DNA of 60,133 bases, taken from assembly GCA_044892505.1 (NCBI GenBank), contig CM097884.1, positions 18,972,001 through 19,032,133 of the forward strand, written 5' to 3'. Shown here piece after piece: positions 188 through 31,214 of this stretch. Position numbers and translations under genes: made by a program. The notes beneath the pieces are model-generated. The model was not told the DNA's origin. It did no database searches and worked only from the letters and a program-made list of their open reading frames with translations. Origin of the DNA: Schmidtea nova (taxonomy: Eukaryota). Every line of letters starts with the position of its first letter. Within the stretch, counting starts at the first letter, position 1.

Positions 188-247
188 TCATGCGAAATAA
201 TCCCGTGCCGTCGGGTCATAAAAATCGTACGGATCATCTGAGGTACC

Positions 248-288
<41 letters not shown>

Positions 289-6466: not shown

Positions 6467-6498
6467 TTTTTCAAATAAAGTTTATTAAAATAAATTGT

Positions 6499-6876: not shown

Positions 6877-6955
6877 AATAAGAATAATAAAAATAATAAC
6901 TTTGATCATTTATACTGTTTGAGCTCTGTTCAAACTAATAATGTTTAAGCTTTGC

Positions 6956-8176: not shown

Positions 8177-8538
8177 TCTTCAAATATAGTTCCATGACCT
8201 TTCATTCGTTTGTTTATACGTTTTCTAATCTTTTTACGTCTTGGTCCTACCGGTTCAGGTTGCGGTTCGTTTTTGGAAAACATATTTGAAATTGACGGTA
8301 TCGCCTTGGATACAGCCTCCATAGCATTCGTTTTCAATGTAGGTAAAATTTTCTGATCTTTCATTATAACGTCTTTAGCAGTTTTCATTCCAAAACTGCC
8401 CAGTCGCTTAAGTAGTGGAAGTGCAAATCTTCCAATAGTTTTCAACCAACCTGATCCATACTGTTTACCTATAAAATACGGTAATTCGCCACCAGTTTGG
8501 CTATTACTGTACAATGAAATTATATCGGGATTACTCAT
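8173..8538 (-). CDS. Small basic core/membrane-lytic-like protein (adenovirus pVI-like)
   Basis: QTGG and QYGSG motifs, amphipathic WLKTIGRFALPLLKRLG, basic tail ending MKGHG. Confidence 0.6.
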   Translation of the reverse strand: MSNPDIISLYSNSQTGGELPYFIGKQYGSGWLKTIGRFALPLLKRLGSFGMKTAKDVIMKDQKILPTLKTNAMEAVSKAIPSISNMFSKNEPQPEPVGPRRKKIRKRINKRMKGHGTIFEE

Positions 8539-9556: not shown

Positions 9557-10600
9557 TTTACTAGGTTTTTTGATGATATCCATGATGGTTCTTTATATCC
9601 GTGCCACTTTACATAGTATTGTTTATCCTTACCCACCATTTTAGATTTCAGGATTTTTTGAATTCTAAATATTGTCGGTGGAGGAATAACTTGTAATTCT
9701 TGTTCGTAGAATTTCCCACTGATTATATTGTTATCAGAGTCACAAATAGTATACATGACAGGATTCTGCACTGTGTTGACTTTCGATATTTGATATACCT
9801 CATCACTCCAATTATTATCAAAATTTTTAATGAATGGCGATGCACTAATCTTGCTAATTCGAACATGATCACCAATTTTATATTTTGGTTTCTTTACTTT
9901 TACTTCACTCACAATATTTTCAGTATCAACTACTTCTGCCGGTTTCCTGCCATTTATACCCCGATGAGCACTATGATTATAACTATGAATCAATTGAGGT
10001 AAAACATTAATCCAGGTTTTATTGCCTTTAAAAACAAAGTATTTTTTCAATCGATCCCGCAAAGTTCGATTAAATCTCTCGACATGAGCGGCTTTGAATT
10101 GCGAGAATACCGAATAATGATTTATTCCCTTGATAACTTCCTTGACTTTACTGTTGTAAAATTCCTTTCCTAAAAAATATTAAAAAATGTATAAATTTAA
10201 ATTAAAATTTACCCAAATCGGTTTGTAAATTAGTTGGCCGATCCTTTTTCATCATTGTCTTGATAGCGATTGCCATGTCATTAGCTGATTTCGATTTTAC
10301 TCCAATTGCTCGAGCAAATCTACTGTAAACATCAATACATGTTAAAATATACTTGTACCCCTTGTTAATAGCGGAATACGGAATCATTTCCATCAAATCC
10401 ATTTGCCACAAATCATTGATTCTATATGTTTTATATGCTCGGGTTGGAAACCGTTTCAACATCGGTTTGTTTAGACTGTATGCAAGTTGCCCCGATAACC
10501 AACTTTGTGTCTGTTGTTTCGACTTCTGTGCTTTTTTCCTTAGCTTTTCGACTCCACCGAAACCGGCGTCGTCTTTTGGGTTCGTCCAGATCTTCTCCAT
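9553..10600 (-). CDS. Retroviral-type (rve) integrase with C-terminal chromodomain, spliced (intron 10212-10170; 334 aa)
   Basis: WQMDL, then QTDLG|KEFYN across the intron, VERFNRTL, YYVKWHGY chromodomain; spliced length 1005 nt, no internal stop. Confidence 0.95.
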
Positions 10601-10655
10601 TACAACAAGAAGATTTAAAGTTTAAATTCAAATTAGGTAATGATTGACCCATTGT

Positions 10656-11201
10656 TTATGACCTTTGTCCCAATAAACCAGCACCTCCCAATAATGATAA
10701 AGCTAGTGGTAATAATGCGGCAATAAATCCTCCTTGTTGTTTATATATTATTTTTCGCATAAGTTTTCGATTTTTTGTTTTTACTAGCGACAACAATGGT
10801 TTCTTATGCTTGTTCAAAACACGTCGATTAGATGGACTGAGATGCATTTTACCTCGTACTACTTTAATTAAAATAGTGAGTAAATCATCGATAACGTAAT
10901 TAGGAAACGATTGAAGAATACCCATTCTTCTAGCGGATGGGGCTTTAAGCAATGCATTAAAAAACGGAAAACTCCGATGATGTACTTGTTTAGCATTTGA
11001 TTTCAAATTAATTGGAATTTGATTTTGTTTGGGAAAATTATCCATAATTAGTTTTTTCGATGGTGTATAACTTGTTTTTGAAACTGATTTTGAAACGGAT
11101 TTCTTTGTCGATTTCTTTCTTCGACCTGCTTTCTTACCTATTTTCATTGATTTTCGAGCTTTTATCAATCGTTCAAACTTTACTCGAGATTTCATTAACA
11201 T
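10656..11201 (-). CDS. Basic core protein with adenovirus pX-like C-terminus
   Basis: K/R-rich; ends QQGGFIAALLPLALSLLGG. Confidence 0.55.
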   Translation of the reverse strand: MLMKSRVKFERLIKARKSMKIGKKAGRRKKSTKKSVSKSVSKTSYTPSKKLIMDNFPKQNQIPINLKSNAKQVHHRSFPFFNALLKAPSARRMGILQSFPNYVIDDLLTILIKVVRGKMHLSPSNRRVLNKHKKPLLSLVKTKNRKLMRKIIYKQQGGFIAALLPLALSLLGGAGLLGQRS

Positions 11202-11221
11202 TATTATTACTGTAAATCAAT

Positions 11222-11845
11222 TTAACTTTGTTTATAAACCATGGCTCCTTCCTTGTTAAAAATATCAGTTCTAACCCTTAAATCATCACTGCATTGTTGA
11301 GTAAAATCCAAGAAAATATATCCATGAGGAGATTTTGTAGCATCCTGAAAGGCTTCAATCAAAAAGTTACGATTTGAAGGATAAGCTTGTCTTGCCAGAA
11401 AATCAATAACTGTTGCATCTCTAGGATTTTTAAAAACAACAAGATATTGAACATTTAAATTACGAGTTCGATGACTACCGCCCTGATGAAATAAATTCTG
11501 AGTTATAAAAATAACAGTAACACCTTTATGTCTACTGATTTTCGTAAATAAATTATTAAAATCCTTTTCTTTATTTGCTTCTTGATACAAGTCGTCAATG
11601 ATAATCACATCACCTTGTTTTAATCTAGATGACCAGTTTTTATCGAAACCTTTTATGATTGTCATTTTTATTTTACAAAACTGATCTTGTGTCATTCCAC
11701 TTTCGTCGTCAGCACCCCTATGCCAATAAATATTATTAAATTTCGACTTGAATAATTTCGATTGCAATAATTTACAAACAAATAAAGTTTTTCCACTCCC
11801 GCTAGGACCAACAATTTGAAACACTGCATCATTTCTTAATTCCAT
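11222..11845 (-). CDS. A32-like genome-packaging ATPase
   Basis: Walker A GPSGSGKT, Walker B IIIDDL, SRH..VTVIFITQ, KNPRD. Confidence 0.93.
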   Translation of the reverse strand: MELRNDAVFQIVGPSGSGKTLFVCKLLQSKLFKSKFNNIYWHRGADDESGMTQDQFCKIKMTIIKGFDKNWSSRLKQGDVIIIDDLYQEANKEKDFNNLFTKISRHKGVTVIFITQNLFHQGGSHRTRNLNVQYLVVFKNPRDATVIDFLARQAYPSNRNFLIEAFQDATKSPHGYIFLDFTQQCSDDLRVRTDIFNKEGAMVYKQS

Positions 11846-11938
11846 ATTTAAAAATTATATTTTCTTAATATTATTGTTTATATTTGTTTTAAATACCTGT
11901 TCTCAAAGTAATCATTTCATTTAAAAATATTTTCAGTA

Positions 11939-12406
11939 ATGATTAGAAACATTAATTACAAGGGTAAGACAGATGTATCACACATGAAATTTCCAAATGG
12001 AAAACCCCAGCAAATTGTAGATCGAAGTGGAAAATACCCAATAATATACTTTAAATCAGGAAGATATAGAATAATGGGATGCAGGGAATTTATTAGTGAC
12101 GAACAAGTTGAGTTTTACGATTTAAAGATACAATCGATAACTGTAACTGCAGATTTAGGATTTATTTGTAATTTGAATGAATTATCGAAATTAATACCAT
12201 GTGTTTACGAGCCAGAATTATTTCCAGCTTTGAGATATATCAAATATAATCCCATGTGTGTAAATATATTTGCAAGCGGAAAATTAGTCATATTAGGATT
12301 AAAAAACAAAGACTATAGTACTATAGTTGATGATATTATTTACGATATAAAATCAATTATAGAAGATAAAGCCTTTGTTGATTTCATACTAACATGTGAC
12401 TCATGA
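11939..12406 (+). CDS. TATA-binding-protein-like protein
   Basis: ITVTADLGF..NL, YEPELFPAL and IFASGKLVILG match the TBP second repeat; IYFKSGR resembles a degenerate first repeat. Confidence 0.85.
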   Translation: MIRNINYKGKTDVSHMKFPNGKPQQIVDRSGKYPIIYFKSGRYRIMGCREFISDEQVEFYDLKIQSITVTADLGFICNLNELSKLIPCVYEPELFPALRYIKYNPMCVNIFASGKLVILGLKNKDYSTIVDDIIYDIKSIIEDKAFVDFILTCDS

Positions 12407-12574
12407 CTGCAATATCGATGCATTAGAAATGCACGATTCTGATTGGCTCTGTGTGTATCGTTAGAATAAAGACATGTTGTGCATGCTTCATTCTGATTGG
12501 TTCATTATGTGTGTTTCAAATCATGTGTGTTTCTTTGATATATATACTATGAACAATCTCGCATATTCACAATA

Positions 12575-13221
12575 ATGTCTCTTACGCAAACACTAATTAA
12601 AAGCCGTAAGGATTTTTAATTATTTATTTATTAAAATTAATATTATTTCTTTTTTTAGAAAAGCTGATGAACGTCATATATCGGAAGCTGGAGGAACTGT
12701 TCCCAAATCTGATGCCGGCTCTGGTCTACACGGCTCCGGAGATGTTCCCATATAAAATTATGGTCCTGACTGGTATCGATATAAACCAGATTGTGCTCGA
12801 TCATATGACGAGCCAGAATACCGATTTGCCAGTGGTACCCGAGCACATTATCTGTGCGTACCAATGCGGAAGTTGTGTTGAGCGCATTCGCCAATTCAAC
12901 ATTTGGGTTTTGCGAAACTCATTGAAATTATACGAAGTCCAACAAATGGACAAAATCAATGAGGAGGAGGAGGAGGACCAAATCAAGGAAACCTGGCCCA
13001 ACTCAACTCCGGAGCCGACTGATGAAACAACAACAACAACAACAGAATTGGAAGCACCAACTCTAGATGGTCCGTTTCCATCCGATGAATCCGATGAATC
13101 CAATGATTGTATGGATTCGCCACAATCACCGGATTGTGCAGAATGCCATCGACAAGCTGATGGTGGTGTTGAGGAGGAAGAAGAAGAAGAAGAAAAAGAA
13201 AAAGAAAACACCGAACAATAA
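12575..13221 (+). CDS. Spliced accessory protein, Cys-rich and acidic (intron 12606-12658; 197 aa)
   Basis: GTAAGG...TTTTAG intron joins MSLTQTLIKS in frame to QKLMNVIY; paralog at 27609-28043. Confidence 0.7.
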
Positions 13222-13747
13222 TTTGATGTGTGTGTGTGTTTAATGTATTTAGTTTTTAGTTTTGTAATTTTAGATTAATAAAAGTTTTTTTTTTTTTTTT
13301 TTTTTATTCATTTTAGTTTTTATTTTTATTTAAATAATAGTAATACTTTTTGATAAAAAAATTTTTTATTAGTAGTTTTTTATTAACTATATAAAATAGT
13401 AATTAGTTTTTATTAAATAATTAGTAAGAAAGTGTTTTATGAAAGATAATATTAATAATAATAATAAAAAATAATAAAAATAATTGTTAAATAAACAAAT
13501 AAGTAAATACATTAGTAGCAGAACATTGCAAACAGAACCCTGGACGTAGAACTTATTCTGTGATTGTTTTTATATGAAAAAGCTTCATAATAAATAATTA
13601 AAACATACATGCATGCATACAACAAAGACATTGCAATACATGTGCATACTGTGTGCAAAACAAATGCATGAATATGATTGGACAAAGACATCCAGTCATC
13701 AGTATAAATACAAAGACATTTTATAAAATATTGTCACTATTTACAAC

Positions 13748-14164
13748 ATGCAATCACGAAAACAAAATCTCGATATATGCGATGAAAAAATATACCAGAC
13801 TGAGGTAAAACCAGTTCAGATGTACTATGACAGCCGACTTTATTTTTTGGTTAATGAAATACCGTATCGATTATCATTTCCGGTAAAATTAACAAAATCT
13901 TTATATGATAGTCTTGCTGTAATTATTGCCAAGGAAGATATTATCGCATTAAATAGATTATTTTCAAAGATGAATGTTAATTTGACATGTAAAGAAACCA
14001 TGTACATCAATAACAGAAAAACTCGGTTTCATGATGCTTTTCAAACTATTGATTTCATGGATCAAGAACACTGGTTCGTTACAGTTATTATTCAAGGGTA
14101 CAAGATTGATAAAAAAGATGTTGTTACTCCGATTTGGAGAGTTGACAATGCAAGATACGCATAA
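13748..14164 (+). CDS. Polinton accessory protein of unknown function
   Basis: 138 aa; clear paralog at 31656-32063 (shared PVQM, FLVNE, FHDAFQ, IQGYKID, PIW). Confidence 0.7.
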   Translation: MQSRKQNLDICDEKIYQTEVKPVQMYYDSRLYFLVNEIPYRLSFPVKLTKSLYDSLAVIIAKEDIIALNRLFSKMNVNLTCKETMYINNRKTRFHDAFQTIDFMDQEHWFVTVIIQGYKIDKKDVVTPIWRVDNARYA

Positions 14165-14228
14165 TTGTTTTTTAATAAATATTTTAGTATGAACAAATTT
14201 AGTTTTTATATTAGTTTTTGTTTTTAAA

Positions 14229-14816
14229 ATGAAATTAATTATAGTTATTTTATTATTATGTGTTGATAATACTGAAGGAGAACAAGCTTTGGAAGATTGT
14301 CAATCATCCCATCCGTTTCGAAAACAAGATAGTACTTGCGCGAGTTATAACGATATATGTCTTTACTCAAACATTGAATGCAATCAAATAAAATTACAAT
14401 GTAATCAATGTCCTTCCAAAAATAATGTGATTAATAAAGATATTGAAAAAATGATTAACAAAATAATGATGAAAATAGTTGAAAGATTAAAATGTATAAA
14501 TCAAACTATTGTTAAAAAAGAATATGAAGTCAGATACCAAAATCAAACAGTGGAAAACGAAAAAACAGCAATTGTTTTACATTATATAAGTTTATTTATA
14601 TTAATAATTATAATGATGTTATCGGCATCCATACGGCTGGAGAAGATTTCAAATATTCCAAAGAATAATATTCCGACAAATACTAGTATTCCGATGAATA
14701 ATATTACAATGAATAATAATAATATTCCTATGAATAATATTCCGAGTAATAATTCAGATGTAAATAATTTTGAAACGAAATTTTGTACACGTACACAACG
14801 ATATATTTATAAATAA
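14229..14816 (+). CDS. Predicted type I membrane protein with Cys-rich ectodomain
   Basis: Signal-like MKLIIVILLLC, Cys-rich segment, TM IVLHYISLFILIIIMMLSA, Asn-rich tail. Confidence 0.55.
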   Translation: MKLIIVILLLCVDNTEGEQALEDCQSSHPFRKQDSTCASYNDICLYSNIECNQIKLQCNQCPSKNNVINKDIEKMINKIMMKIVERLKCINQTIVKKEYEVRYQNQTVENEKTAIVLHYISLFILIIIMMLSASIRLEKISNIPKNNIPTNTSIPMNNITMNNNNIPMNNIPSNNSDVNNFETKFCTRTQRYIYK

Positions 14817-14830
14817 ATTTTGGCTTTTTA

Positions 14831-14995
14831 ATGTCTTTGTTTATGTTGTACATGTGTTGCACGCATGTGTCTTTGTTTAGTTTGCATGTGTATTGCAATG
14901 TCTTTGTTCATGTTGCACGCGTGTTGCAAAGTCCTTGCACGTGTGTTGCAATGTTTTTGTTAACTTGCACGCGTGTTGCAATGTCTTTGTTTAGT
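14831..14995. repeat. Imperfect tandem repeat of ATGTCTTTGTT / GTTGCACGCGTG units
   Basis: Several ATGTCTTTGTT and TTGCA(CGCG)TG copies visible. Confidence 0.7.
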
Positions 14996-15219
14996 TTGAA
15001 AGATAATAATTAAATAAAAAACATTAGTAGCAGAACATTTAGTATCAGAACCCTGGAAGCAGAACATTGCGATCAGAACCCTGGAAGCAGAACCTCTTCT
15101 GTGATGGTTTTGAAGTGCAAAAGCTTCATACTTGACAAATAATAATTAATTAAAAATGCACACATATAAAAATGTCTTTGTTTGCACACCTGTTGTAAAT
15201 ATTTTTGATGACTCTAATT

Positions 15220-15590
15220 TGGTCTTATAAAAATAATTTGTCTTAAAAAAAAAATTTTTGAAAAAAATAATTTGTCTTAAAAAAAAAAAAATTTTTTGAA
15301 AAAAATATTTGGTCTGAAAAAAAAATTATTGAAAAAAAAAATTTGGCGCGAAAAAAAAATTTTGAAAAAAAAATTGGCGCGAAATAAATATTTGAAAAAA
15401 AAAATTTGGCGCGAAAAAAATTTTTGAAAAAAAAATTTGGCGCGAAAAAAAATTTTGAAAAAAAAATTTGGCGCGAAAAAAATTTTTGAAAAAAAAATTT
15501 GGCGCGAAAAAAATTTTTGAAAAAAAAAATTTGGCGCGAAAAAAATTTTTGAAAAAAAAATTTGGCGCGAAAAAAATTTTTGAAAAAAAA
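15220..15590. repeat. Subterminal ~31-bp tandem array with 8 TTGGCGCGAAA (E2F-consensus) cores
   Basis: GGCGCG cores start at 15345, 15376, 15408, 15439, 15470, 15501, 15533, 15564; three degenerate units precede. Confidence 0.9.
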
Positions 15591-15597
15591 AAAATTA

Positions 15598-15771
15598 TGA
15601 CTCATCGATGACTCATCGATGACTCATCAAAAAAAAGTATGACTCATCGATGACTCATCAAAAAAATTTTTTTTTCTACCCCCCCCCGGGGGGAGGGGGG
15701 TCTTTGTTCTTTTTTTCCGCCCACGCATGAGTCATAATGTCTTTGTTCCCGGCTCCACACATCTACCTACT
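15598..15771. promoter_or_regulatory. Right terminal region with TGACTCA (AP-1-consensus) repeats and C/G-run palindrome
   Basis: Five TGACTCA in 15598-15660, TGAGTCA at 15728, C-run/G-run at ~15679-15700. Confidence 0.7.
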
Positions 15772-18700
15772 AGAGAAAGTAACAAGAAACTCACACCACT
15801 CTTCAAAGCAGAAGCACCATACCAAGCTAGACTAGATGCGATACAAGAAAAAGCAAAAGAATTGTTACCGGAATTCGAGAATAGTAAACATGCACTGGAA
15901 ATACTCGGTGCATTAGTTGAAAAAGTACACGCATACGCAAAAGGAACATACAATGGTAACGATATAACGACTATAAAAAAGGAGATGCCAGTAACATTTT
16001 TACTACCAAAGGACGGAATAATGCCCATACATAGAGCTCTACGAAATGGCAAAGATAAAAAAGTAATGGAAATTGCAAGAGTAATGTTAAACTGCGGAAG
16101 CAACATGAATATGGTAGACGAGAAAGGAGATACACTCATGATATTTGCAGCAAGGGCCAAAACGAAAACAAAAGTGCTGGAAGAACTATACAAAGCAGGT
16201 GCAGGACTTACAGGAAAGACAGACAAAGATAATTCAATTCTGGATGTAGCATTACTAACACATAATTGGGAAATGGTCAACTTCATTAAAACAATCTCAA
16301 ATCAGGAAGAAATAGATTACCTAACTGATACGGTCAGGAAACCCAGTGTACTAACAATGATGCATAATGTCGAACTAACAGAAGCAATACTTACGTGGAT
16401 AAATCCGAATACTATCGAACCAGCATTCAGGATTAATGAGTTTACAGAACATAACCAAAATTGGTGCATAAGAAGTGCCTTAATAACGTATAAATGGCCA
16501 GAGATATTGAAGATGTTTATGGAAAGAAAGGATCTAAGGATCACAACCAGCCCGAAGGAAGAAAAGTACACAGGCAAATGGAAAGAATTGATGAAGACAT
16601 ACATCAACAATTGGATCAAGGCCAAAAAGGAAATCTTAGAATATAAATCCACTAACAAAGTAATACCAGAACAGGTAGAAACACAAGAGTTTGAGGCAAG
16701 TAATCTAACGACATTAGCGTATGCGAAACTAATAGAAGAAATCAATGTCGAGGACGACATTTTCGACGAGCCAGGGGGAGATGACAATACAGATAGTGAC
16801 GACGGTAACAACGCAGAAAATTCAAACGATCACGAACCACCCGATAAAGAGGAAAACGAGAGAAAAGACAAGAAACGAGACAAGGAAGAAAAGAAAAGTA
16901 AAGACGAAAAACAAAGAGATGAAGAGGGAGAACAAGGAAAAAACGACCAAGGAGATAAAAATGACACCCAAAGAACAGGTTATAAATCAACCATAAAACC
17001 ATTCTTCAAACCAGAATTACTATTATTAACAGTGATTTTAACGTTAATTAACCCAAGTCAAGGAATGACATGTGAAGAAAGGGCAATAATACAAATAAAA
17101 AACGCGAAAGGAATCGAACGAGTATGTTGGTCAAAAAAGGACAAAATCACGGAACAAAATAGTCCGATGGATTGCAGAATCTCAAAACACGAGCAAGAGA
17201 TCATAGAGATCAATGACCTAGATCTAAATACCTGGTACAAAATATGCACCGTTAGAAAACAAAAGCATCCAAGATCACGCAACACAATCGCATGTGCAAA
17301 ATACCAAACACCTAAAGCAGCCATGACAATACAACAGTCACCCAAAGGAGATTACATCCTCGGAAAATGTGGAAGAACAGAGACACAGGGAACAGAAAAC
17401 AAAAAACCCCAGGCAATAGATAAGCAAGCAACACCAACCCTACGAATTACAATAAAGAGGCCCGAAGCAAGAGTTGCCACAAACGAAACCGAAAGAGTGT
17501 CTTACCAAATGGAAGTATTATGTTTAGCACTCATACTAATAATAATAAAACGATTAGAGGAAGGGATAGAAATCGAAACTATGACAATAACAGAAGTAGA
17601 AGATACACAGAATACTAACATAAAATGTTGGGCGAGGAATAACGAGGAAATCGGCGTAAATGAAATAAGGAAAAGTCGAAAACCAACAACGAATAAAGTA
17701 ATTAAAGTATCCGAAGTAAAAGCAGATAAAACGTACAAACTATGCCTACTAGAAAAAGAGAGAAACAAGAAAGGTACCAAAAAATGTAAAACATTCCAAC
17801 CTGGAGAAGTAATAAAGTTCAGAAGGAGAACGAGGAAGAGAAATAAACAAATCAAGCGGAAAGTAAACATAACATTAGAAATAAAAGAGATAGAACCAAA
17901 TGTGAAAGGAGTATGCTGGAGGAAGTACGAAAAAGAAGTAAATAAAAGAACGACACCACAATGTCGAACAAACACAGGAACAACGACGATTCAAATAAAA
18001 GGTTTAGAAAGTAAACAAACCTACGAAATATGTTTGGTAAAGAAAAATGATCAGATAACGATAAACGACCTAGAATGCGGAATATATACAACTTCATCCG
18101 GAACAAGAACCAAAACGTTAACACGGAAAAATAAAAGGAAACAACAAAACAAAGAAAAACCGAAGTACACCACTACCTTTAAAAACAATAAACAACCAAC
18201 AAACCAAGAAGTTACGACGAAACCCGAGAGAAAAACATCAGCAACTCTAACATTATGGAAAATAGAGAATAAAACATTAGAAATATGTTGGATAATAGTA
18301 CAGAAACATATAAGAAGACAATCAAGAGAATGCAGAAAAACAAATAAAGAAATCAAGATCGAAAAACTACAATTTAATAGCGAGTATGAAGTATGCGCAA
18401 TAGAAATAATGGACGCACTAGGAAACCAACAAGAAAGATTCGAAACCTACTATACACCAGTAAACGCGACATCAAAAGGAATAACAAGGAAACTCGAATT
18501 CAGGGAACTAAGCCAAACGAATGAACAAATGGACGCAGAAAAAATAATAATCGACCCTCAAGCAAAATGGACACCCGAAGAAGTTATCAAAGAAGTCAAA
18601 AGAAAGCAAGAGGAACGAGAACAATTAATGAGAAAACTAAAAGGACAATACGGAATAATGTTCAACCAAAGCAAATCTATACAAACAGACGAGAATTAAC

Positions 18701-18966
18701 AAATCAAAGAATTAATTGGCTTAGGAATATTAACAGCGACCATACCGGTAATAATCGCATTATCAGCTATATGGATACGCAAGATAAGCCCAAGAAAATC
18801 AACAACCCAATGGCTAAATATAGATAATACAAGCCATGGAGTCGAAATACTGGAAGCACGAGAAGAACCAAGATCGACCAGGAATGAGAAAGAAGCAAAA
18901 GGCGGAAAACTGGGAATGAACAACGAAGACAAAGAAATAGAAGAGATTAAAAGCAAAGAGACGTAA
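15727..18966 (+). CDS. Ankyrin repeats + acidic linker + internal signal-like peptide + four FN3-like repeats + TM; in-frame TAA at 18697-18699 precedes the TM
   Basis: About three ANK repeats (GIMPIHRA, GDTLMIFAA, DNSILDVA); CW...C...L.xxYxIC repeats; frame continues as LIGLGILTATIPVIIALSAIWI. Confidence 0.7.
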
Positions 18967-19008
18967 TATGAAAGGCGAACCAGAAGCCTACCGCAGAGTT
19001 CAAAATGG

Positions 19009-20469
19009 TTGGGTCTAACAATAATATTGACATTAATCAATAGGGAAGAAGCAATAAACCCACAGACAGGGATAAAAGTAATAAATGTTCAGGAAGTCGA
19101 GAAAATATGTTGGTATAGAGAAGATGAACCAATTGGAGAAAATAACCCACTAAAATGCATAATCCGAAAATCCGACCAGGATATAGTACGAATAGAAGAA
19201 ATGGATGGAGGGACCATGCATCGGATATGCATAATAGAAAAGGAAAAGAAGTCGGGGCTACCTAAGACAGTCGTATGTCAAAAATATGAAACACCTAGAC
19301 TTGAATGGTATAAAGTAAAACCAACAAAGAAGGAAATTAAAAACACAATAGATCAACCAGCAACTCAGATGAAAAACACAACGGACAAACCAAGAGAGGG
19401 GGAGAGAAGCACAAATAACACGAGAGAAGGAGTATCACCCCAACAAGATTTTGTATGCATAGCGTTAATAATAGCAATGTCCAAACGTATCGATAAAGGA
19501 ATAATAATAGAACAAATGGCTATGACAATAAGGAGAAAAGACCAAAGCAACAACATATGCTGGGGATGGTACAACGAACCTAGGGAATACCAAGTTCAGA
19601 CAAGCGACGAATCACGAACAAACCAGGAAACCGAAATACAAGAAATACAAATGAACGGAGAAGGAAGTATATGTATATGGGAGAAAGGAATCCAAGAAGA
19701 TCAAACCGGAATAGAAAAATGCAAGACATTCCAAAAAGGAGAGATTCTGAAATTCGATAAAAAAGAATTAACCAAAACAGAAAGAACTCTGACATTAACA
19801 GGACTTGATCAGACAGTGAAAGGAATATGTTGGACAAAGCATAACCCAGAAGGAGAAGAAGCCAACCTAACCCACTGTAAAGAAACAGGGAATAAGGAAA
19901 AAGTCGAATTAAAGAAAATGGAAGTAAATAAGACATACGCGATATGTACCTTCACCAGAAAAGGTTCAGAAAAACCAGAATGCGGATTATATCAGATCTC
20001 AGAGAAACTACAACAACAGATCAAACCAGGAAACGTGGAAAACCGAACAAAAGAAAATAACGTCAAACAACTACTAAACCGCCATTGGTCTACCCAAGAA
20101 GTAATGAACAAAATCAAGAGTCAAATACAGAAAGAGAAGAAGCCAGAGGCTCAAACCCAAAATGAGATAAAAGCGAATCAGAAGAAAATCAAAGCAACAA
20201 ACCGTGGAAAAACAGTAATAGGACTAATCAGTATAGGAATATTAATAGCATATGGAATACTGACGACAAGCATAATAGTATATTGGAGATACAGAAAGAG
20301 AAACAAAGCGACAGCCATACAATGGCCAGATATTAAAATTATGAAACAAAGAATAGAGATACCAGAAGAGATACAGAAAGAATTTCAAAGAAGAACGAAA
20401 GGTAAAGAATTCTGGAAACAAATAGAAGATGAAGAACGATACGAAGAAAAGACGATAATGATGGTATAG
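19009..20469 (+). CDS. Membrane protein with three FN3-like repeats and TM; no ATG start, same frame as the upstream ORF
   Basis: Paralogous to the FN3 module upstream (ILTLIN, VCIALII..KR, W.xEV, TM, QWxxI). Confidence 0.7.
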   Translation: MGLTIILTLINREEAINPQTGIKVINVQEVEKICWYREDEPIGENNPLKCIIRKSDQDIVRIEEMDGGTMHRICIIEKEKKSGLPKTVVCQKYETPRLEWYKVKPTKKEIKNTIDQPATQMKNTTDKPREGERSTNNTREGVSPQQDFVCIALIIAMSKRIDKGIIIEQMAMTIRRKDQSNNICWGWYNEPREYQVQTSDESRTNQETEIQEIQMNGEGSICIWEKGIQEDQTGIEKCKTFQKGEILKFDKKELTKTERTLTLTGLDQTVKGICWTKHNPEGEEANLTHCKETGNKEKVELKKMEVNKTYAICTFTRKGSEKPECGLYQISEKLQQQIKPGNVENRTKENNVKQLLNRHWSTQEVMNKIKSQIQKEKKPEAQTQNEIKANQKKIKATNRGKTVIGLISIGILIAYGILTTSIIVYWRYRKRNKATAIQWPDIKIMKQRIEIPEEIQKEFQRRTKGKEFWKQIEDEERYEEKTIMMV

Positions 20470-20594
20470 GGGCGGATTATGACTGTAAATAATAGTGTAA
20501 ATAACAAAGCATTACCGTAATAGTATGGGTATCGATATTATAAAAATTGTAAAAAGATAGAAAAGCAAAGTAAACGATGTATATAATTTAGAAA

Positions 20595-20951
20595 ATGACC
20601 GAACAAGACGAAACAACGGAAATAACTATGGCTATGAGATGGAAGGCACAATGCAATTTATTAGTACGAACAGTCAACTCATTACAGAACCAATTAGCGG
20701 AAAAACAAATGTTACTATCAGAAAGTTATAACAACTGTTTCGAACAATTACACAGAATAGAAGAACAACAAAGAATGATAACCGAACTCACCAGAGAAAA
20801 TCAAACGATAAGCAACATCAATCAAAGACAAGCAATAGAAATAAACCATTTAACACGAGGAGAAAGAGAAGAATCCGAAGAAGGATGGATGAGTTGGGTA
20901 ATAAATAGATTAAACAACGAAGCGGAACCAGATTCAACGAATGAGCCATAG
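20595..20951 (+). CDS. Coiled-coil protein of unknown function
   Basis: 118 aa with heptad pattern; shares the unit A spacer motifs. Confidence 0.6.
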   Translation: MTEQDETTEITMAMRWKAQCNLLVRTVNSLQNQLAEKQMLLSESYNNCFEQLHRIEEQQRMITELTRENQTISNINQRQAIEINHLTRGEREESEEGWMSWVINRLNNEAEPDSTNEP

Positions 20952-21043
20952 ATAAATAAAGCGGAAAATTGTAAATATGTAAAAATAAAAACAAGAAAAA
21001 TCAAAAATAAATGACAAGTCGAATGTATATATTATTGTAGAAA

Positions 21044-22420
21044 ATGGACAGAGAAGAACGAATAATCGAAATTTTGAGACTAGAAAACAAAAAATGGAGC
21101 AAGAGGCTCACATGCGGGAAGTGTAACAATTTATTACGAGAACCTAGACAAACGATATGTGGATGTAGAATATGTACAAAATGTATACAAGAATTAGATG
21201 CAACAGGAATAACAACATGCCCAGAATGTAAAGAAGGAAGAATAGTGTTGGACGAAACCAGAACGGATAAAGCAACCCAGAGAGAAATTATGAGCACCAT
21301 AACGGAGTGCGTAAATACACCTTGTACATGGCAAGGACAAATAAGCAATCTAGAAAATCACATGGAAAATTGCGAAGAGAAAAGAGCCGAATGCGAGAAG
21401 TGTCAACAGATAATAATTCTAAAGAAGAAAGAACAACACAAGGACGAATGTAAAGAAGAAGAAATCGCATGCAAGTATTGTGAAACTCGAGAGACAAGGA
21501 GGAGAATCGAAGAAGAACACTTAAATATAACAGAGGAGAAAGTATGCGGACAATATGTAAGCAAATGTCCAAACAATTGCGAAATAACAGAAGAAATAAA
21601 GTTACATGAACATTGGAAAATATGCACCGAAAGGCCAAGAGAATGTCCATATAACAAGCATGGATGCAAGGAAAAGCGGACGCGAAAAACAATGAAACAA
21701 CACTTGGAAGAAGCAGCATTAATGCATGTGGAGATGACAAACGAGGCGGCAAAAGAAACAGAACAGACAATGCAGAAACTGGAAAAGGAAGTAGAATCAC
21801 ATAAAATAATGATGAGTTTACTACTAGAAACAAGAGAGCAGTTTGAACTAACTCGCAAAAGAATGGAAGAAAAAATAATAGCCATAGAAGAATTGGGAAA
21901 AGGAATGAAAATACAATATAATCAATTAATACGAGAAATTGACGAAAGAAGGGACTTACCAATTGCACCTTACCTATGGAAAATAACAGATTTTAGAGAC
22001 AAACTAGCAGAGGCCCGAAATATGACTAAAACAGCAGTAATAAGCCCACCATTTTATTTATGGAAAAATGGGGTTAAAATAAGATTGAAAGTATACCCAA
22101 ATGGAGACGGAAGAGGACAAGGAACACACGTGTCAATATTTTTCTCGTTATGTAAAGGAGAATACGATGACCTAATAGAATGGCCCTTGAAAGTAGGAGT
22201 CATTATAAGAATCAAAAGTATAGGAAAACCAGTAGAAAAGTTCTTTGAAACAGACAAACATACGAGTACAAGCGAAAAACCAACAACAGAATGCGGACTA
22301 GCAGCAGGAGAACCAATGTTTATAAGGAAAGAAAACCTATGGGAGCGACTGTATGCAGACACGCTATACATAGAGATGGAGAGGCATGAGAAAACAGACA
22401 GAAAAGGATGGTTGGCGTAA
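21044..22420 (+). CDS. Full-length TRAF-family protein (RING, TRAF zinc fingers, coiled coil, MATH)
   Basis: CGKC...CGCRICTKC...CPEC RING; C.N.PCTW and CPYNKHGC zinc fingers; MATH SPPFY...YPNGDGRGQGTHVSIFF...GEYD..IEWP. Confidence 0.95.
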   Translation: MDREERIIEILRLENKKWSKRLTCGKCNNLLREPRQTICGCRICTKCIQELDATGITTCPECKEGRIVLDETRTDKATQREIMSTITECVNTPCTWQGQISNLENHMENCEEKRAECEKCQQIIILKKKEQHKDECKEEEIACKYCETRETRRRIEEEHLNITEEKVCGQYVSKCPNNCEITEEIKLHEHWKICTERPRECPYNKHGCKEKRTRKTMKQHLEEAALMHVEMTNEAAKETEQTMQKLEKEVESHKIMMSLLLETREQFELTRKRMEEKIIAIEELGKGMKIQYNQLIREIDERRDLPIAPYLWKITDFRDKLAEARNMTKTAVISPPFYLWKNGVKIRLKVYPNGDGRGQGTHVSIFFSLCKGEYDDLIEWPLKVGVIIRIKSIGKPVEKFFETDKHTSTSEKPTTECGLAAGEPMFIRKENLWERLYADTLYIEMERHEKTDRKGWLA

Positions 22421-22531
22421 TGAAGAAAGTAACCATGTAAATAAACTGTATAAAACAATATGAAATAACAAATAATCAAAAACAATAAAAATAAAAACTG
22501 ATTAAATATTCTTTTATCTGTAATTATAGAA

Positions 22532-23593
22532 ATGGGAAATATAGAGGTAACCTTACAAGAAGTAACCGTACATCAAGACGAAATGATCAGAAATCACATG
22601 GAGCGGATTGGGATATGGATTCACGCCTATTATCGAAAACAGGAGGAATTAGAAAGACAAACCCAAGCACTAAGAGAAGCCGAGAAATCGAATCAAAGAA
22701 GTCGAGAAAAAATAGAAGAAGTCTACAAACTGCTAAGACAACAAAACGAATACTACAAAGGGATGATGAAAGAGCGACGAGAGGATAGGGATAGACAACA
22801 GATAAAAACAGACCATAAGATTCAGTCAATCACCGAACAAGCAAGATATTGGAAAAAAGAGGCAAAAGACTCTTACAAGGAAGCAAGGGAGATAATAGAA
22901 CGAACAGCGTACAGCGATGATTGGAAACTGTTTAAAGAGATCGATGAATTAAAAGAAGAATTAGGGAAAAAGATCAGTCAAGAAGCGTCAAATAAAGTAT
23001 GGAGTAAGAAAAGACAACAATTCATCAGGGAACAAGCCAAGAAAATTAAAGAATTAACTCACCAAGTGCAAAGAATGGGAGAAGATTTAGCCAATCAAGA
23101 ACAATTAAAAGGTATGCTGACCGGAATGTGGAATCACAAGGAAGAAAACATGAAAAGAGACATAAATGGATATCAAGGAGTGATTACCCAGAAGAAAATA
23201 GAATTAAAAAGAACTAAAGAAAGACTGGAAGAAACGAGGCAGAGTTATGAAGAGAACATAACAAATTTGACAAAAGAAAACGAAGAACTGAGAAAGAAGC
23301 TAACAGAAAAACCAGTACCCACAAAGGAAACAAGTATCACAGCAGCAGTGACCGAAATGATAGAGAAAGAAGAGAGAGAGAAAAAATTAGCAGAACTAGA
23401 AAAACAAATAGAAACCCTAACAGAGCAGGCGAACTATCTGGAATACTTATTAGATGAAGAGATCCAGATATCCCACACGTACCGAGAGGAAGTGGAAATG
23501 TGGAGGAGTACGGTAATATGGATGCCACTCCCCATAAATCAGGTGGAACCTCAAGACGAAGGTTTTCACGAACCTAACGAAACCCTCGTGTAA
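22532..23593 (+). CDS. Long coiled-coil protein
   Basis: 353 aa, E/K/R/Q-rich heptads, MG start. Confidence 0.65.
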   Translation: MGNIEVTLQEVTVHQDEMIRNHMERIGIWIHAYYRKQEELERQTQALREAEKSNQRSREKIEEVYKLLRQQNEYYKGMMKERREDRDRQQIKTDHKIQSITEQARYWKKEAKDSYKEAREIIERTAYSDDWKLFKEIDELKEELGKKISQEASNKVWSKKRQQFIREQAKKIKELTHQVQRMGEDLANQEQLKGMLTGMWNHKEENMKRDINGYQGVITQKKIELKRTKERLEETRQSYEENITNLTKENEELRKKLTEKPVPTKETSITAAVTEMIEKEEREKKLAELEKQIETLTEQANYLEYLLDEEIQISHTYREEVEMWRSTVIWMPLPINQVEPQDEGFHEPNETLV

Positions 23594-23672
23594 ATGAGCG
23601 GAAACCAATTGTAAATAGATGATGTAAAATAAAAAGCGTCAAGCTGTATTGACTCCTATGTAAAGATAGAAA

Positions 23673-24233
23673 ATGAGAAAGCTCGCAATACCAATACTCC
23701 TAGGGTTAATAACCATCACCCTACAGAGAGAAGATCTACAACTTACCGAAACCCAATTACGAGTTCTACCCGACAAAACCTACCAAAAAGTAGACAGCCT
23801 AATCGAAGAAGTAATTAAAGAAATCAACGAATTCCGACAGAAATATCCCCACAATCAAGATCATCAAATCCAACAAATCTTAGATAACCAACAACTGAAA
23901 CTAAAAGAAACCCAAAAAACCCTGAAAGAAGGTAGAGAGCCCATAAAAAGCCTAGCCCAAGCTGAAATAGAATATCAAGAGAAATGGATCATAGCAATCA
24001 TCATAATCCTCTCAATCAGCGTAACTATCATCGCAATCACAATCCTGATTGCCTCCTACCGGATAAAAATCCTCAAACAGAAACAAACCATCGTCAACCA
24101 AACATCAAGGCGAGACAACCGAACCCAAAGACGTATGAGAAACCATCTAGATCGAATTCAGACCCACTACGAATTAGCTACAATCAATGAGAGAACTCAA
24201 ACCCAACCCAATGCGAGCCGGAGGATCGAATAG
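23673..24233 (+). CDS. Small type I membrane protein
   Basis: Signal-like MRKLAIPILLGLITIT; TM WIIAIIIILSISVTIIAITILIASY. Confidence 0.65.
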   Translation: MRKLAIPILLGLITITLQREDLQLTETQLRVLPDKTYQKVDSLIEEVIKEINEFRQKYPHNQDHQIQQILDNQQLKLKETQKTLKEGREPIKSLAQAEIEYQEKWIIAIIIILSISVTIIAITILIASYRIKILKQKQTIVNQTSRRDNRTQRRMRNHLDRIQTHYELATINERTQTQPNASRRIE

Positions 24234-25755
24234 ACTTTGTGAACATTTCTGATGAACCTTTGACTATCCTGTGACAATAATCTGATAATATTCAACTATC
24301 CTATGACAAATCTTATGATGTATATAAATTCTATCACCTTAAGTGATTTTCTTTGTGTTTATGTGTATATCTGTAAAACTTTTTATGTATGATGTTATAA
24401 GTAGATATGTATAATTAATTGCGGGACGCAATTTTAGGGGTCCCCGAGTGATGTTGGGCCCACCAATTGGTCTAAAAAGGCAAAAATATTGTACTAATTT
24501 AAACAATAAATACAAATAATAACCACAAAAAACATTCGAAAAACCTAAATTAAAAATTAAAATAAAATAATAAATAATAATTACTAAATTTCCAGCAAAG
24601 GAAGAAAATCAAATTGACACGAGAACGAGCAGTATGGGGGTCTGAAATAAGAAAATTACAAATAAAATCAAATAAAAGTACAATTAATTGGTTAATTACT
24701 TGAAAAAATCGAGACCACCCAGCGAGAAATCTGAACCGGAAATTTAAAATGGTTTATATTAAAATAAAATAACAAAATTACTTTGATGGACGGCCTGATC
24801 CTGATTGGTCAATCTGACCAACTGGATCAGTATAAATACCGATCCAAAAATCATACAGGTAACACCTAAAAACTTAGCTACCGAACTGATCTATCATAGT
24901 CAACTTTGATACGATAAATATTGTGTAAACTTTTGGAAACGCTGCATCTTGGATTTAAAGAGTAAATTTTTTTGTATTGTATTTTGCACTAATTTTATGA
25001 TATGTTTTACATGATTCCCATTTGTTTCATTTCATTTAATATAATTTATTACTATTAATTGCTCTATTTTCTTATGCTATTATTTTATGATATGATAAAT
25101 ATACTTCCTCAGTAGCTAACGCTGCGAGGGAGCAAGCCGTAAATGTGGGATTTCACCGTTCCACAAGATGGTGAGCAGACTTTTTATGGGTATTTTTATT
25201 TAACTTAATTTTATCAGAGGTTTAACTTTACAGTAAAGTTGTGCAGGGACCAGGACACGAGTAAAATTAGCAGCCAGTGTTTCACATTAGTCAATTAACA
25301 TTCGATCAGACAGGAGAGAATAAACTACAGTAGCTATTATCATGTCAATTGATTTTGCATATACACACGATTTTTTTTTTCTCTCGAATCCACATAGCTG
25401 ATCGAAATAATGTCCGGACACACCGAGACGATTTCGACATGTCAACGATAGTTTCAATTAGGATATAAATAACCACATAATCAGATCGATGCTACTGATT
25501 GAATAAGTAAAATCGTAACCTGATCGCTGTAAATAGCGCAGGTAATAATATGTAAATTTTTTAATATCCCGATCGCTGTATATAGTGACGGTGTTAATTG
25601 AATAGCTTAGAAAATATAATTTTTTTTTATTATTCCTCCCTTTCATATTTTTTTTTGTTGTTGTGTTGATCAACGAGAGGAGCACTTTTCATCAGGTCTC
25701 ACCAAAATTTACGGATTCGTCACAGTAAATTTTATTAGTATTATTATTTTCTCAG

Positions 25756-26256
25756 ATGAAAGCAACGATACTGGATGAATTTCTAACAACTCAACGTCAT
25801 GTGGCACGGGTCGAAAATCCTCTAATCCGGACGCAACAGAAGAAATTGAAGTCGCTCCCACAGGAACTTCTAAGAACGCTAAATGCGTTGATGTATAAAT
25901 GGAGACGGGAACTAGGAAAGAAATGTCCATTTTCGATTTGGGCCGGTGGATTAGATACCATCATTTATCGTGGAGGCCCCGGATGGGAAATTCAGGACGA
26001 AAGAGACCGGGAGACGACCGCGCTGTTCATCATAGTGGTGACAGACAGAGAAGAAAATCCAACGACAGTGATCCATTGGGGATATGTCTCACCGCTCAAG
26101 TTGCTTCAATTCGGGTTGATTCCGAATCACCTACCAAAAACGTGCCATGGGCGTCCCAAACTAAACTGTTCGATGGCTCACATCCGACGAGATCCAGTCA
26201 ATCACGGGTTACATATTACTCCCGTTCACGGCCTCAAGCGAAGCGTTTTTCACTAA
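25756..26256 (+). CDS. Hypothetical protein
   Basis: 166 aa ORF with raised GC; ATG directly after TTTTCTCAG. Confidence 0.4.
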   Translation: MKATILDEFLTTQRHVARVENPLIRTQQKKLKSLPQELLRTLNALMYKWRRELGKKCPFSIWAGGLDTIIYRGGPGWEIQDERDRETTALFIIVVTDREENPTTVIHWGYVSPLKLLQFGLIPNHLPKTCHGRPKLNCSMAHIRRDPVNHGLHITPVHGLKRSVFH

Positions 26257-26440
26257 ACATTATATTCACATTTTTATGAACTAAACTATTTCCATAAATT
26301 AAATGGTATTGATCTGTGTTTTGTTTGTTCTTAGTTAAATTTATTTCTATTTATTTAATCATATAAATTTTACACTCGACGGATAATATTAATCGTGGTA
26401 ACAGAATTGCTACATTATAACATGGGTTTTGTTATTTAGT

Positions 26441-27031
26441 ATGACGGAAACTAGCCAACAGCGAGAATTGGACAAGGCGTGGAGAATCCGCCGAGCCTTA
26501 GAGAGGGAACTAAATCAGGAAAAAGCATTACGAGCCAAGGCAGAAGCTCAGATTCAGCATTTACGGACCAGCTGGTTCGCCCCAGCCCGTATGAAGGAGC
26601 AGATGAGTCGGACGGAAAGGGCTCAAAAGACAGCTGACGATTATCGCACCGAATGGGAAGCAACAAAAATTGAGTTGCGCCGATGTCTCCATTCGGTGAC
26701 GACTTCATTTATCGAGTCCGAATTGAAAGCACAAATCCGACCCATTACCTACCAGAAATGGGTAGGAGAACAGAAAGTGGCCTGCTCAGTCAGTACAGAC
26801 ACCGATGGGCTCGAGGCAACAACAGCGCAGAGTCGGGTGGAAACCACCACTGCACCAAACCCCGCCGGAAAACCGAATAAGCGAAAACGAATCGGCTCCA
26901 AGCGCCGTCGCCAAAGAAAGCTGTTTTCTCAGCAATTGCAGACACAAGTAACCACTATGGCAGAAATGTCGGAGGCCGAGTGGTTATCAGAGATATTCCC
27001 TCCTGAAGGAATTTTCAAAGAATTTCTATAA
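26441..27031 (+). CDS. Hypothetical coiled-coil protein with basic NLS-like segment
   Basis: ATG at 26441 after TTTAGT; KPNKRKRIGSKRRRQRK. Confidence 0.45.
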   Translation: MTETSQQRELDKAWRIRRALERELNQEKALRAKAEAQIQHLRTSWFAPARMKEQMSRTERAQKTADDYRTEWEATKIELRRCLHSVTTSFIESELKAQIRPITYQKWVGEQKVACSVSTDTDGLEATTAQSRVETTTAPNPAGKPNKRKRIGSKRRRQRKLFSQQLQTQVTTMAEMSEAEWLSEIFPPEGIFKEFL

Positions 27032-27608
27032 CAGATAGAATACGATGTCAGATTTTGGACTTAATTAAATTTTTGCTCGTTTTTGTTTTTGTTGTTGTTA
27101 TTTCCGAAGTTTTTCCTTCGATTACCTAATTCATATAATTAAATTACCCGTCACACAATGAAAGGAGTAGCGATGAAGGATTTAAATATTATCAAATTCG
27201 TAGTTTCGTTTTGCTTGTTTTTTTTTTTTTGTTTTTATGGTAAATACATAGCCTCACACGCACAAAATAGAACAATAATTGCGTAAGTCCTTCTACGGCC
27301 GCGTGAACCCGTAAACATAAAGGGGGAGTAGTCCTAGCAATAGTGCTCACCTGCCCCTCATTGTTTAACCACCCTGCGCATCACCAACTTGGTTATCAAG
27401 GGAAATAATCAAGGGCGCTCGAGTGTAGCTTACGACTATTTATGCATGATCATGGATGGGAGATCCCTAGCAATCATTCGAATTTTCACCAAACCGTCCA
27501 TGAACCCAGCATATCTGTTAAAGCTTCATTCAATATTTTATTTACAAATAAGTGTGTGTGTGAAAATAATTAGTATATATACCAGTTATTTTTCATTTAT
27601 ATTCTAAA

Positions 27609-28043
27609 ATGTCAAACTTAACCACAAATGGTAAATTTTGATTATTTGTAATTCATCTTTTAACATTTATTTTAGAAAAACTTATGCAAATTTTAATTAA
27701 CAAGGCAGATGAGCTTTAACAATGTCTTTTAAAAGATTTGATATACTGGGCACCGGAAATTATACCATTTCGAATATGGATGTTAACCGGAATATATCTC
27801 AATGTTGTTTTATTGGATCATTTTAAGACGATTGATCAGGAACTATTGGTAGTAATATATCATGAACCTTGTGTATATCGATGTGAAAGTTGCGTTGATA
27901 GGTTGAAGAACTATCATGTATGGATTCTAAAAAATGAGTTGAGAAAATATCATTTTTCAACCATTGTAGATAAATGTTCAAATATTGATGATAAATGTTC
28001 AAACATGGATGAAAACTGTGCAACCATTGATGAAAACATTTGA
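27609..28043 (+). pseudogene. Paralog of the 12575 ORF, intron 27631-27675, premature TAA at 27717
   Basis: MSNLTTN|EKLMQIL...WAPEIIPFRIWMLTG...CVYRCESCV aligns with the 12575 protein. Confidence 0.8.
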
Positions 28044-30186: not shown

Positions 30187-30228
30187 CAGAAAATAATAAT
30201 AGTAGAAATAAGAAATATATAAATATTA

Positions 30229-30303
<75 letters not shown>

Positions 30304-30304
30304 G

Positions 30305-31214
30305 TATTATCAATAATTCTCATAATGACTATAGATCAAATTTTTTTTATAAACAATAACACAATATTTCGGCACAGCCTTTATCAAGTGTGTATTTCTA
30401 TCGTTATATTTACTTAATCCTAAATAGTAGCCTTAATTATTTTTTTAATATTTTATAATGATTTTATTGGATAAAAAATTTATTTTAATTTTTTTGTGCG
30501 AATTGAATGTTGATGGACGGTTTGTATTTTTTTATGAAAAAAGTCTCGGAAGCTAATCTTTGTAATGAATTTTTGAATCCCTCTTGTAGAATCTGGCATT
30601 TTGTTTCTTCTATAGATGGAGTTGTTTTATGTACTTTCTCCCAGTGTTCGTAATAATTACTGGTTTTGATTTTAGTGTGTTCATTAAGTCGGGTGCGAAA
30701 GGTTCTATGTGTTTCTCCTATGTAAGTAGCGTCACATTTTTGGCAAGAAAGTTTATATACTATATTTTTGGAAAAGCAAAAGCATCGGGTTGTGGAACGG
30801 CAAAGACATTTATGTTTGGAGATGTTGGAAATTGGTGGCTTTCGGAGTTGTGATTTTAACGGTGCGGAGGTTATGAACGTTGGACGGATGTGGATAGGCA
30901 AATCTGTTTGATTAAAAATGTTGGTGATTTTGTTGGCTGTAGTGTCATTTAGGAAAGGTAATCTTAGATATGTTGTGTGTTTCTTATTGTTATTGTGTTT
31001 CTGGCGTTTTCTATTGTTGCGTTTATTGTGGTATGGTTCGTTAAGGAAGTGTTTCTTTACAAAGTCTTCAGGGTATCCATTTTGGAGGAATCGTATTTTG
31101 AAGTTTTCTAATGTTTCTTGTATTTTGTTTGCGTCTGAACAGTTTCTTATGGCTCTTTTTCTTTCTCCTATTAATAATGAGATTTTGCGTTGAAGTGGAA
31201 CGTGGCTTTTCCAT
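30305..31214 (-). mobile_element. 5'-truncated Penelope-like element (GIY-YIG part and 3' end)
   Basis: Near-identical to 37292-38200; flanked by (AAT)n. Confidence 0.9.

Follow-up and report, generated by a model that had tools for sequence, protein, structure and literature searches.

The stretch examined here, hereafter the window, is 60,133 nt of contig CM097884.1 of the planarian Schmidtea nova (assembly GCA_044892505.1); copies of its features were sought in the same assembly. The subject is a row of four open reading frames (ORFs), A1 to A4, together with the four short spacers that precede them, which the initial annotation grouped as unit A. This unit belongs to a Burro-like gypsy long terminal repeat (LTR) retrotransposon of 29 kb, of which it makes up the 3′ part. 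All 37 scored candidate copies (of 874) match the region at 94-100%, and the three copies analysed with their flanks are 29.1-29.5 kb long, with 3-kb LTRs that are 99.7-99.9% alike. One sister copy contains an uninterrupted 5,493-aa ORF followed by the same four accessory ORFs, and the Pfam domains of this ORF stand in gypsy order: zf-CCHC, Monjiviricetes_fusion, RVP, RVT_1, RT_RNaseH, rve and Ank. The 5′ half of the window copy lies outside the window, on its upstream side, and the copy is split at 15771 by a 17.6-kb Maverick with a 6-nt duplication. As the polyprotein frame ends at 20469, spacer 1 follows the polyprotein stop. A 990-aa ORF from 15727 was rejected as a chimera that begins in the Maverick end.

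The four accessory ORFs (Table 1) are under purifying selection: among 30 close copies, third codon positions vary by 2-6%, and first and second positions by 0.5-2%. A2 is TRAF-like, with profile matches to MATH_2 (E 4e-21) and zf-TRAF (E 5e-7), and its nearest database relatives are distant TRAFs (23-37% identical). The profile search placed A1, A3 and A4 in no family above cut-off, and A3 has no relative in protein databases. Comparison of 10 proteins with the protein collection gave no match, and the metagenomes gave no related locus.

Table 1. Features of the element; positions are those of the window unless a locus is named.
Feature	Position	Strand	Remarks
ATG-less polyprotein frame start	G000:C3:18957891 onward; L039:3224-3688; L089:6502-6864		
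Polyprotein ORF, 3′ part	15772..20469	+	ankyrin repeats, membrane-spanning tail; cut by Maverick at 15771; stops at 18697, 18964
Spacer 1	20470..20594	+	125 nt; GCGGA; TGTAAATA 20484 + 20496; TGTATATA 20578; candidate acceptor TAG 20589-20591; no AATAAA
A1	20595..20951	+	118 aa; coiled-coil-like; no family above cut-off
Spacer 2	20952..21043	+	92 nt; GCGGA; TGTAAATA 20970; TGTA 20978; AATAAA x3; TGTATATA 21024; candidate acceptor TAG 21038-21040
A2	21044..22420	+	458 aa; TRAF-like: weak RING, TRAF zinc finger, MATH
Spacer 3	22421..22531	+	111 nt; TGTAAATA 22436 overlapping AATAAA; TGTA 22447 + 22519; candidate acceptor TAG 22527-22529
A3	22532..23593	+	353 aa; coiled-coil-like
Spacer 4	23594..23672	+	79 nt; GCGGA; TGTAAATA 23610; TGTA 23623/23645/23659; AATAAA 23628; candidate acceptor TAG 23667-23669
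A4	23673..24233	+	186 aa; hydrophobic N-terminus, one likely membrane span
3′ LTR	24452..27511	+	TG...CA, 3,060 nt; 99.64% identical to 5′ LTR at G000:C3:18952504-18955563; 4-nt target duplication
TATAAATA box in LTR	24831..24838	+	downstream of ATTGG (CCAAT-type) boxes; from sequence
Conserved LTR block	25104..25176	+	bounded by CAG and ATG|GTGAGC; candidate leader exon, putative donor 25171; folds into hairpins
LTR ORF L1	25756..26256	+	166 aa; TCAG directly before ATG
LTR ORF L2	26441..27031	+	196 aa; TTAG-T before ATG

The unit examined (15772-24451, 8.7 kb) contains 407 nt of spacer, for which the initial annotation had described a single layout: TGTAAATA soon after each stop, AATAAA near it in three of the four, and TAG-AA(A)-ATG at the next gene. 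Each element of this description is exact. The TGTAAATA copies begin at the 15th, 19th, 16th and 17th base past the stops (20484, 20970, 22436 and 23610); the starts read TTTAG-AAA-ATG (20595), TGTAG-AAA-ATG (21044), TATAG-AA-ATG (22532) and GATAG-AAA-ATG (23673); and AATAAA is present in spacers 2, 3 and 4 and absent from spacer 1. A second TGTAAATA copy lies in spacer 1, at 20496. The layout is also far above chance. All five TGTAAATA and all four TAG-A(2-3)-ATG of the unit fall inside the spacers. Per spacer, TGTAAATA is expected within the first 32 nt with a probability of 0.003-0.005 in 20,000 base shuffles and 0.007-0.020 in 2,000 dinucleotide shuffles, and a TAG-A(2-3) ending with a probability of 0.006-0.009 in shuffles; the four values are not simply multiplied, because the motifs were picked post hoc and the spacers may share an ancestor.

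The spacers share further detail. Every one has a second TGTA 8-13 nt past the first and another 11-17 nt before the AG end, and in three of the four GCGGA immediately precedes the first TGTAAATA. Exact UGUAHAUA elements number seven in the 407 nt of spacer versus none in 8 kb of coding sequence, and AATAAA occurs at 2.0 per 100 nt versus 0.3 in the coding part. The distances of the motifs are fixed from the upstream stop and not from the downstream start (63-111 nt). Each spacer has two to four ATGs upstream of its AG, and by upstream T content the four AGs rank 10, 2, 1 and 28 among the 251 YAGs of the unit. No RNA structure common to the spacers was returned by alifold (0 to -4 kcal), and Rfam gave three weak matches, all below gathering score. 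Beyond the shared motifs, conservation also covers the middle of spacer 1 (20500-20545; CAT-ACCGTA...GTATGGGTAT...TATTATAAAA), as seen in five copies from two families; a weak hairpin is predicted there and nothing stronger. Two other lines were set aside: a mini-uORF (ATG-TAT-ATA...TAG), which holds for spacers 1 and 2 only, and the number of composite-motif matches across the genome (1,062; control 1), as 16 of 30 fetched loci were coincidences in Maverick DNA polymerase coding sequence.

The initial annotation had held that motif positions not conserved in other copies would speak against it; the layout is kept both in 30 close copies and in a second family. In the close copies, which are too similar to carry much weight, the first TGTAAATA varies in 0 of 960 cells and a YAG is kept no more than 8 nt before the ATG in 29, 30, 30 and 29 of 30 for spacers 1-4. 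The second family, located through a decayed fragment at 41700-44300, is more divergent: its A1-A4 proteins are 37-52% identical to those of the first, and four-fold sites are identical at 40 of 88. It keeps TGTAAATA at +16, +19 and +17 and TGTAAAAA at +21 past the stops, with YAG 8, 1, 1 and 2 nt before the ATGs, and reads CAG in spacers 3 and 4. This layout was found in 16/16, 15/15, 14/14 and 15/15 anchored copies (20 were fetched, the rest being without the anchor). Tandem spacing and GCGGA are likewise kept across families, as is TATTATAAAA in spacer 1, 55-60 nt before the ATG. A YAG 0-7 nt before the ATG also precedes both LTR ORFs and the leader RING ORF in both families. That TAG and CAG exchange, at free spacing, is expected of a splice acceptor and not of a stop codon or a start context. 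The AGs are probably splice acceptors for subgenomic mRNAs. The fragment through which the second family was located (minus strand) and another at 40520-40700 (minus strand) are decayed remains of a more distant Burro-like element; the latter ends a few bases past the polyprotein stop, where spacer 1 would begin.

One potential donor for such acceptors is the spliced leader (SL) of the host. The planarian SL1 sequence was taken from the supplement of PMC10899757 (cited papers are represented throughout by extracts), and an 18-nt piece of it has 1,136 matches in the genome versus 0 for a control. All 30 fetched SL1 loci carry a fixed ~100-nt sequence, the entire leader, and then mRNA-like sequence that differs from locus to locus; the SL RNA gene itself is absent among these 30. 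In all, 68 SL-match loci were fetched, of which seven were chance matches without the SL. A source locus was found for 11 captured cargos, and the join point is a YAG in all 11 (TAG in eight, CAG in three). Two of these host joins read TTTTAG|AAAATG and TTTTAG|AAATG, and in 10 of the 11 host source genes the first ATG lies 0-33 nt past the join, in all three frames. The host performs SL trans-splicing, and these fossil captures give its trans-splice sites from DNA alone.

In combination, these observations suggest a mechanism that we favour tentatively: the spacers would be conserved cis-signals, with the LTR transcript cut within them and host SL1 joined at the AGs to give separate accessory mRNAs. 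In this scheme, one LTR-driven transcript would carry the polyprotein and the accessory ORFs; 3′ cleavage would take place inside each spacer; SL1 would be joined at the AG just before each ATG; and an RNA-binding protein that recognises the recurring UGUA(A/U)A(U/A)A boxes would set processing versus skipping at each spacer. Genomic RNA would require that all the spacers be skipped. The boxes match the Pumilio element. We infer three components here: use of the AGs, the SL rather than an LTR exon as donor, and cleavage within the spacers.

Several features are in line with this proposal. Joining at the AG would remove the upstream ATGs of each spacer, and the frame from AG to ATG is free in the spacers, as at the host SL joins. 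The same-strand genes are 79-125 nt apart, within the 300-nt operon threshold of PMC12582326; in flatworm operons, the commonest intergenic distance is ~100 bp (PMC8629364) and the median from 3′ end to acceptor is 99 bp (PMC12582326). The SL is preferred to an LTR donor because of this operon-like spacer size, the free frames, the 20-25 kb introns to weak sites that an LTR donor would need, and a donor block that was not found in the second-family LTR. Of the initial proposal of a polycistronic unit, the acceptor before each ORF fits both the comparative evidence and the host SL sites; its UGUA-plus-AAUAAA polyadenylation is weakened.

A number of results weigh against SL joining in the spacers. 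Host SL acceptors are T-richer than the eight spacer acceptors (Mann-Whitney p 0.018), and UUNYAG, a motif of parasitic flatworms, occurs in two of the four spacers (TTGTAG, TTATAG) versus nine of 11 host sites. TGTA(A/T) lies within 25 nt of only two of 11 host acceptors, and is therefore no general host SL signal. Together, these suggest that the spacer AGs are usable, weak acceptors on an A-rich strand and that the UGUA boxes are a signal of the element's own. In a large subfamily (A4 protein ~85% identical), seven of eight loci read AAG-AG-ATG at spacer 4. Finally, the search for fossils in which the SL is joined to A1-A4 or gag found none (0 of 61 SL-capture loci), which is a weak argument because captures sample a limited set of mRNAs.

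Searches for fossil junctions gave a similar picture. A query of ATG plus the A1 start had 0 matches. The SL end plus A1-A4 starts had one (control 5), the SL end plus the gag start 13 (control 8), and the LTR block plus ATG five (control 0), all without a junction; one match is an LTR whose donor GT reads AT. By eye, no Burro starts were seen among the matches listed (best 100 of 156; best 100 of 155). In four contig sets covering 17500-27700, which are probably DNA, the joints and loose ends listed include neither an SL nor an LTR junction at any of the four AGs; the loose ends carry what we take to be tagmentation-adaptor letters. Contig depth, which peaks close to the TATA box of the LTR and shows no such peak in the spacers, was discarded because it cannot rank places.

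The 3′-end part of the proposal is harder to sustain in the form first given, in which UGUA plus AAUAAA marked 3′ processing. The AATAAA enrichment of the spacers agrees with it. The UGUA/CFIm component is weakened: for S. mediterranea, 3P-seq work reports UGUA to be absent upstream of poly(A) signals and CFIm-59/68 to be missing (PMC5068929). In addition, not one of the five poly(A) signal hexamers of planarians occurs in spacer 1. The spacers are also without a clear U-rich downstream element. Viral gene-end and gene-start signals, offered initially as the other possibility, are not supported, the unit lying inside an LTR retrotransposon that has a TATA-containing LTR and encodes reverse transcriptase and integrase.

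The strongest competitor, although we consider it unlikely, is that a leader exon in the 5′ LTR is cis-spliced to the AGs, in the manner of a complex retrovirus, with or without alternative poly(A) in the spacers. Leader splicing with alternative poly(A) has a precedent in the adenovirus late region. All evidence for acceptors applies equally here, and the LTR contains candidate donors (24859, 24962 and 25171), which also counts against SL joining. The ATG|GTGAGC block is nearly unchanged in a ~74%-identical LTR and in an 87%-identical one, and an upstream cis donor is said to out-compete the SL under a donor-first rule (PMC4558846). Against cis-splicing, introns of 20-25 kb to weak, A-rich acceptors would be needed; the donor block was not detected in the second-family LTR; and a leader ending in AAGATG would give A3, and in many copies A4, a strong upstream ATG in another frame. 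Neither an intron-less LTR nor a leader-joined copy was found in the genome, a weak point. Near-identical internal regions carry quite different LTR types, suggesting LTR swapping.

Another possibility, which we regard as improbable, would be that each spacer is a compact internal promoter in which GCGGA and the tandem TGTAAATA, presumably Forkhead-type GTAAATA sites, start transcription before the next ORF. The conservation of tandem spacing and GCGGA in both families, and of TATTATAAAA in spacer 1, would agree with this, as would the tissue-enriched expression of Burro1 (PMC8532177). It would leave the conserved YAG, with its TAG/CAG exchange, unexplained; the motifs are positioned relative to the wrong end of the spacer, that of the upstream stop; and the upstream ATGs would fall in the leaders. 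In the LTR, the TATAAATA box with its ATTGG boxes is likely the promoter of the element, judged from its motifs, and the spacers do not have this layout.

The signals might instead operate in translation. Here, the RNA would stay polycistronic, with Pumilio-type sites acting in translation or stability and reinitiation or internal entry occurring at the A-rich AAAATG. The restriction of UGUAHAUA to the spacers, the A-rich start context and the AAG-AG-ATG subfamily are consistent with such a role. The two to four upstream ATGs per spacer are not, nor is conservation of YAG as YAG, including CAG, which is not a stop codon, and this alternative is accordingly a poor prospect. Least of all, it is very improbable that the layout was merely inherited, functionless, from a duplicated spacer. 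In its favour, variable columns within the young family number 0 of 32 in the first TGTAAATA and 23 of 321 elsewhere in the spacers, a difference that is not significant alone; against it, the motifs persist between families near four-fold saturation where the intervening sequence differs.

SL joining in the spacers may extend to the whole element. A possible, more speculative model is an eight-cistron operon (two LTR ORFs, the RING ORF, the polyprotein and the four 3′ ORFs) resolved by the SL, in which the cassette (GCGGA, UGUAAAUA twice, UGUA, YAG) would be a protein-controlled switch between accessory mRNAs and genomic RNA, and the polyprotein would stand behind an acceptor without an AUG of its own. 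The polyprotein frame is open without an ATG for 155-194 codons before the first ATG in the first family (27/27 anchored of 30, and four divergent copies) and for 121 codons in the second (20/20 anchored of 30). In both families, a TAG stands at or close to the beginning of this ATG-less frame and is followed by AAAATTGA. The five indels of the frame are all multiples of three, but its amino acid sequence drifts neutrally. Only in the first family would the polyprotein be in frame with an SL that has AUG at its end. The polyprotein start is possibly leader-supplied or non-AUG. Each of the LTR ORFs L1 and L2 is seen behind an acceptor-like AG and is followed by ATTAAA and a U-rich tract.

The repeat that captured the leaders is a distinct entity, consisting of the ~100-nt fixed stretch, the complete 42-nt SL1 and the 5′ part of many different mRNAs. 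One copy lies in the window at 51589-51736 (minus strand), with cargo at 50360-51588. The element often has a shared proteasome-alpha-like segment, sits among AAT repeats and short inverted repeats, and has many copies ~5 kb apart; cargo gene names, including a CEP164-like cargo, are as we recognised them from translations. It is likely a non-autonomous Penelope-like element that switches template at the SL; capture of host genes by Penelope repeats is described in PMC3846280. The literature searched contains no description of such an SL-capturing element, which may be more novel than the spacers. A further repeat occurs in the window at 30216-31214, 37292-38289, 52653-53213 and 59138-59795, with copies in both direct and inverted orientation next to AAT tracts. 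A GIY-YIG-like stretch was seen by eye near 53070 (minus strand), and the repeat probably represents Penelope-like ends. The Maverick/Polinton occupies 1-15771 of the window, with capsid-like and A32 ATPase matches, integrase-like and TBP-like ORFs by eye, and a 31-nt repeat array at 15289-15632 that contains TTTGGCGCGAAA, presumably E2F-like.

Among known systems, the element agrees with Burro-type gypsy elements in the structural features tested: ~30 kb, LTRs and a target duplication; gag, an env-like fusion domain, protease, reverse transcriptase, RNase H and integrase; and MATH/TRAF and ankyrin cargo. Pfam returned no BIR, BCL2-like or dUTPase-like domain in it (E<=0.01; last ~80 residues outside the scan). 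Burro elements (GYPSM1/Burro1-4; PMC6431247) share with it a length of ~29-30 kb, an ORF of ~5,000 aa or more, a gag knuckle, a fusion domain between gag and protease, protease, reverse transcriptase, RNase H and integrase in that order, ankyrin repeats, TRAF/MATH and RING functions, and accessory ORFs. Domain placement sets it apart from Burro1-4: TRAF/MATH is a separate downstream ORF here, is within the polyprotein in S. mediterranea Burro1, and is an upstream accessory ORF in D. tigrina (PMC6431247). It has seven accessory ORFs, two of them inside the LTR. The bdelloid rotifer terminons are likewise retroelements of giant size that carry numerous accessory ORFs of coiled-coil and membrane type, but are Penelope-like, without LTRs, and telomeric (PMC6431247).

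The Burro elements, which rank with the largest LTR retrotransposons known, fill the genomes of planarians and supply the main PIWI targets that have been studied in these animals. Spacer signals and mode of expression are not given in the extract of the Burro description (PMC6431247), and expression of Burro accessory ORFs (TRAF, RING, membrane proteins) is not described in the extracts of the papers cited; the literature searched, with Grohme 2018, Zayas 2005 and Rossi 2014 outside its scope, contained no account of spacer signals or trans-splicing in Burro elements. With the spacers, the positions to examine in existing RNA data are known exactly. If the SL does resolve them, a retroelement would have adopted host operon processing wholesale and would need a switch that protects its genomic RNA.

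Operons of flatworms and the SL2-type operons of C. elegans resemble the unit in their same-strand genes ~100 nt apart, a YAG near the ATG and an SL in the host (PMC12582326, PMC8629364). Unlike these operons, which have U-rich tracts, the unit has A-rich spacers with UGUA boxes and lies inside a retroelement that needs unprocessed genomic RNA. A parallel to the proposed mechanism is C. elegans Cer1. This LTR retrotransposon yields a subgenomic mRNA trans-spliced to SL1 as well as an unspliced gag-pol RNA in which the sites are skipped (PMC3315495); it differs in having one subgenomic mRNA and one SL site, and lacks a series of cistrons that each follow a recurring spacer cassette. An SL on an LTR element is thus already known from Cer1, and the element is of a known kind; the spacer signals are real, conserved and functional-looking, and the processing mechanism proposed for them is a likely candidate.

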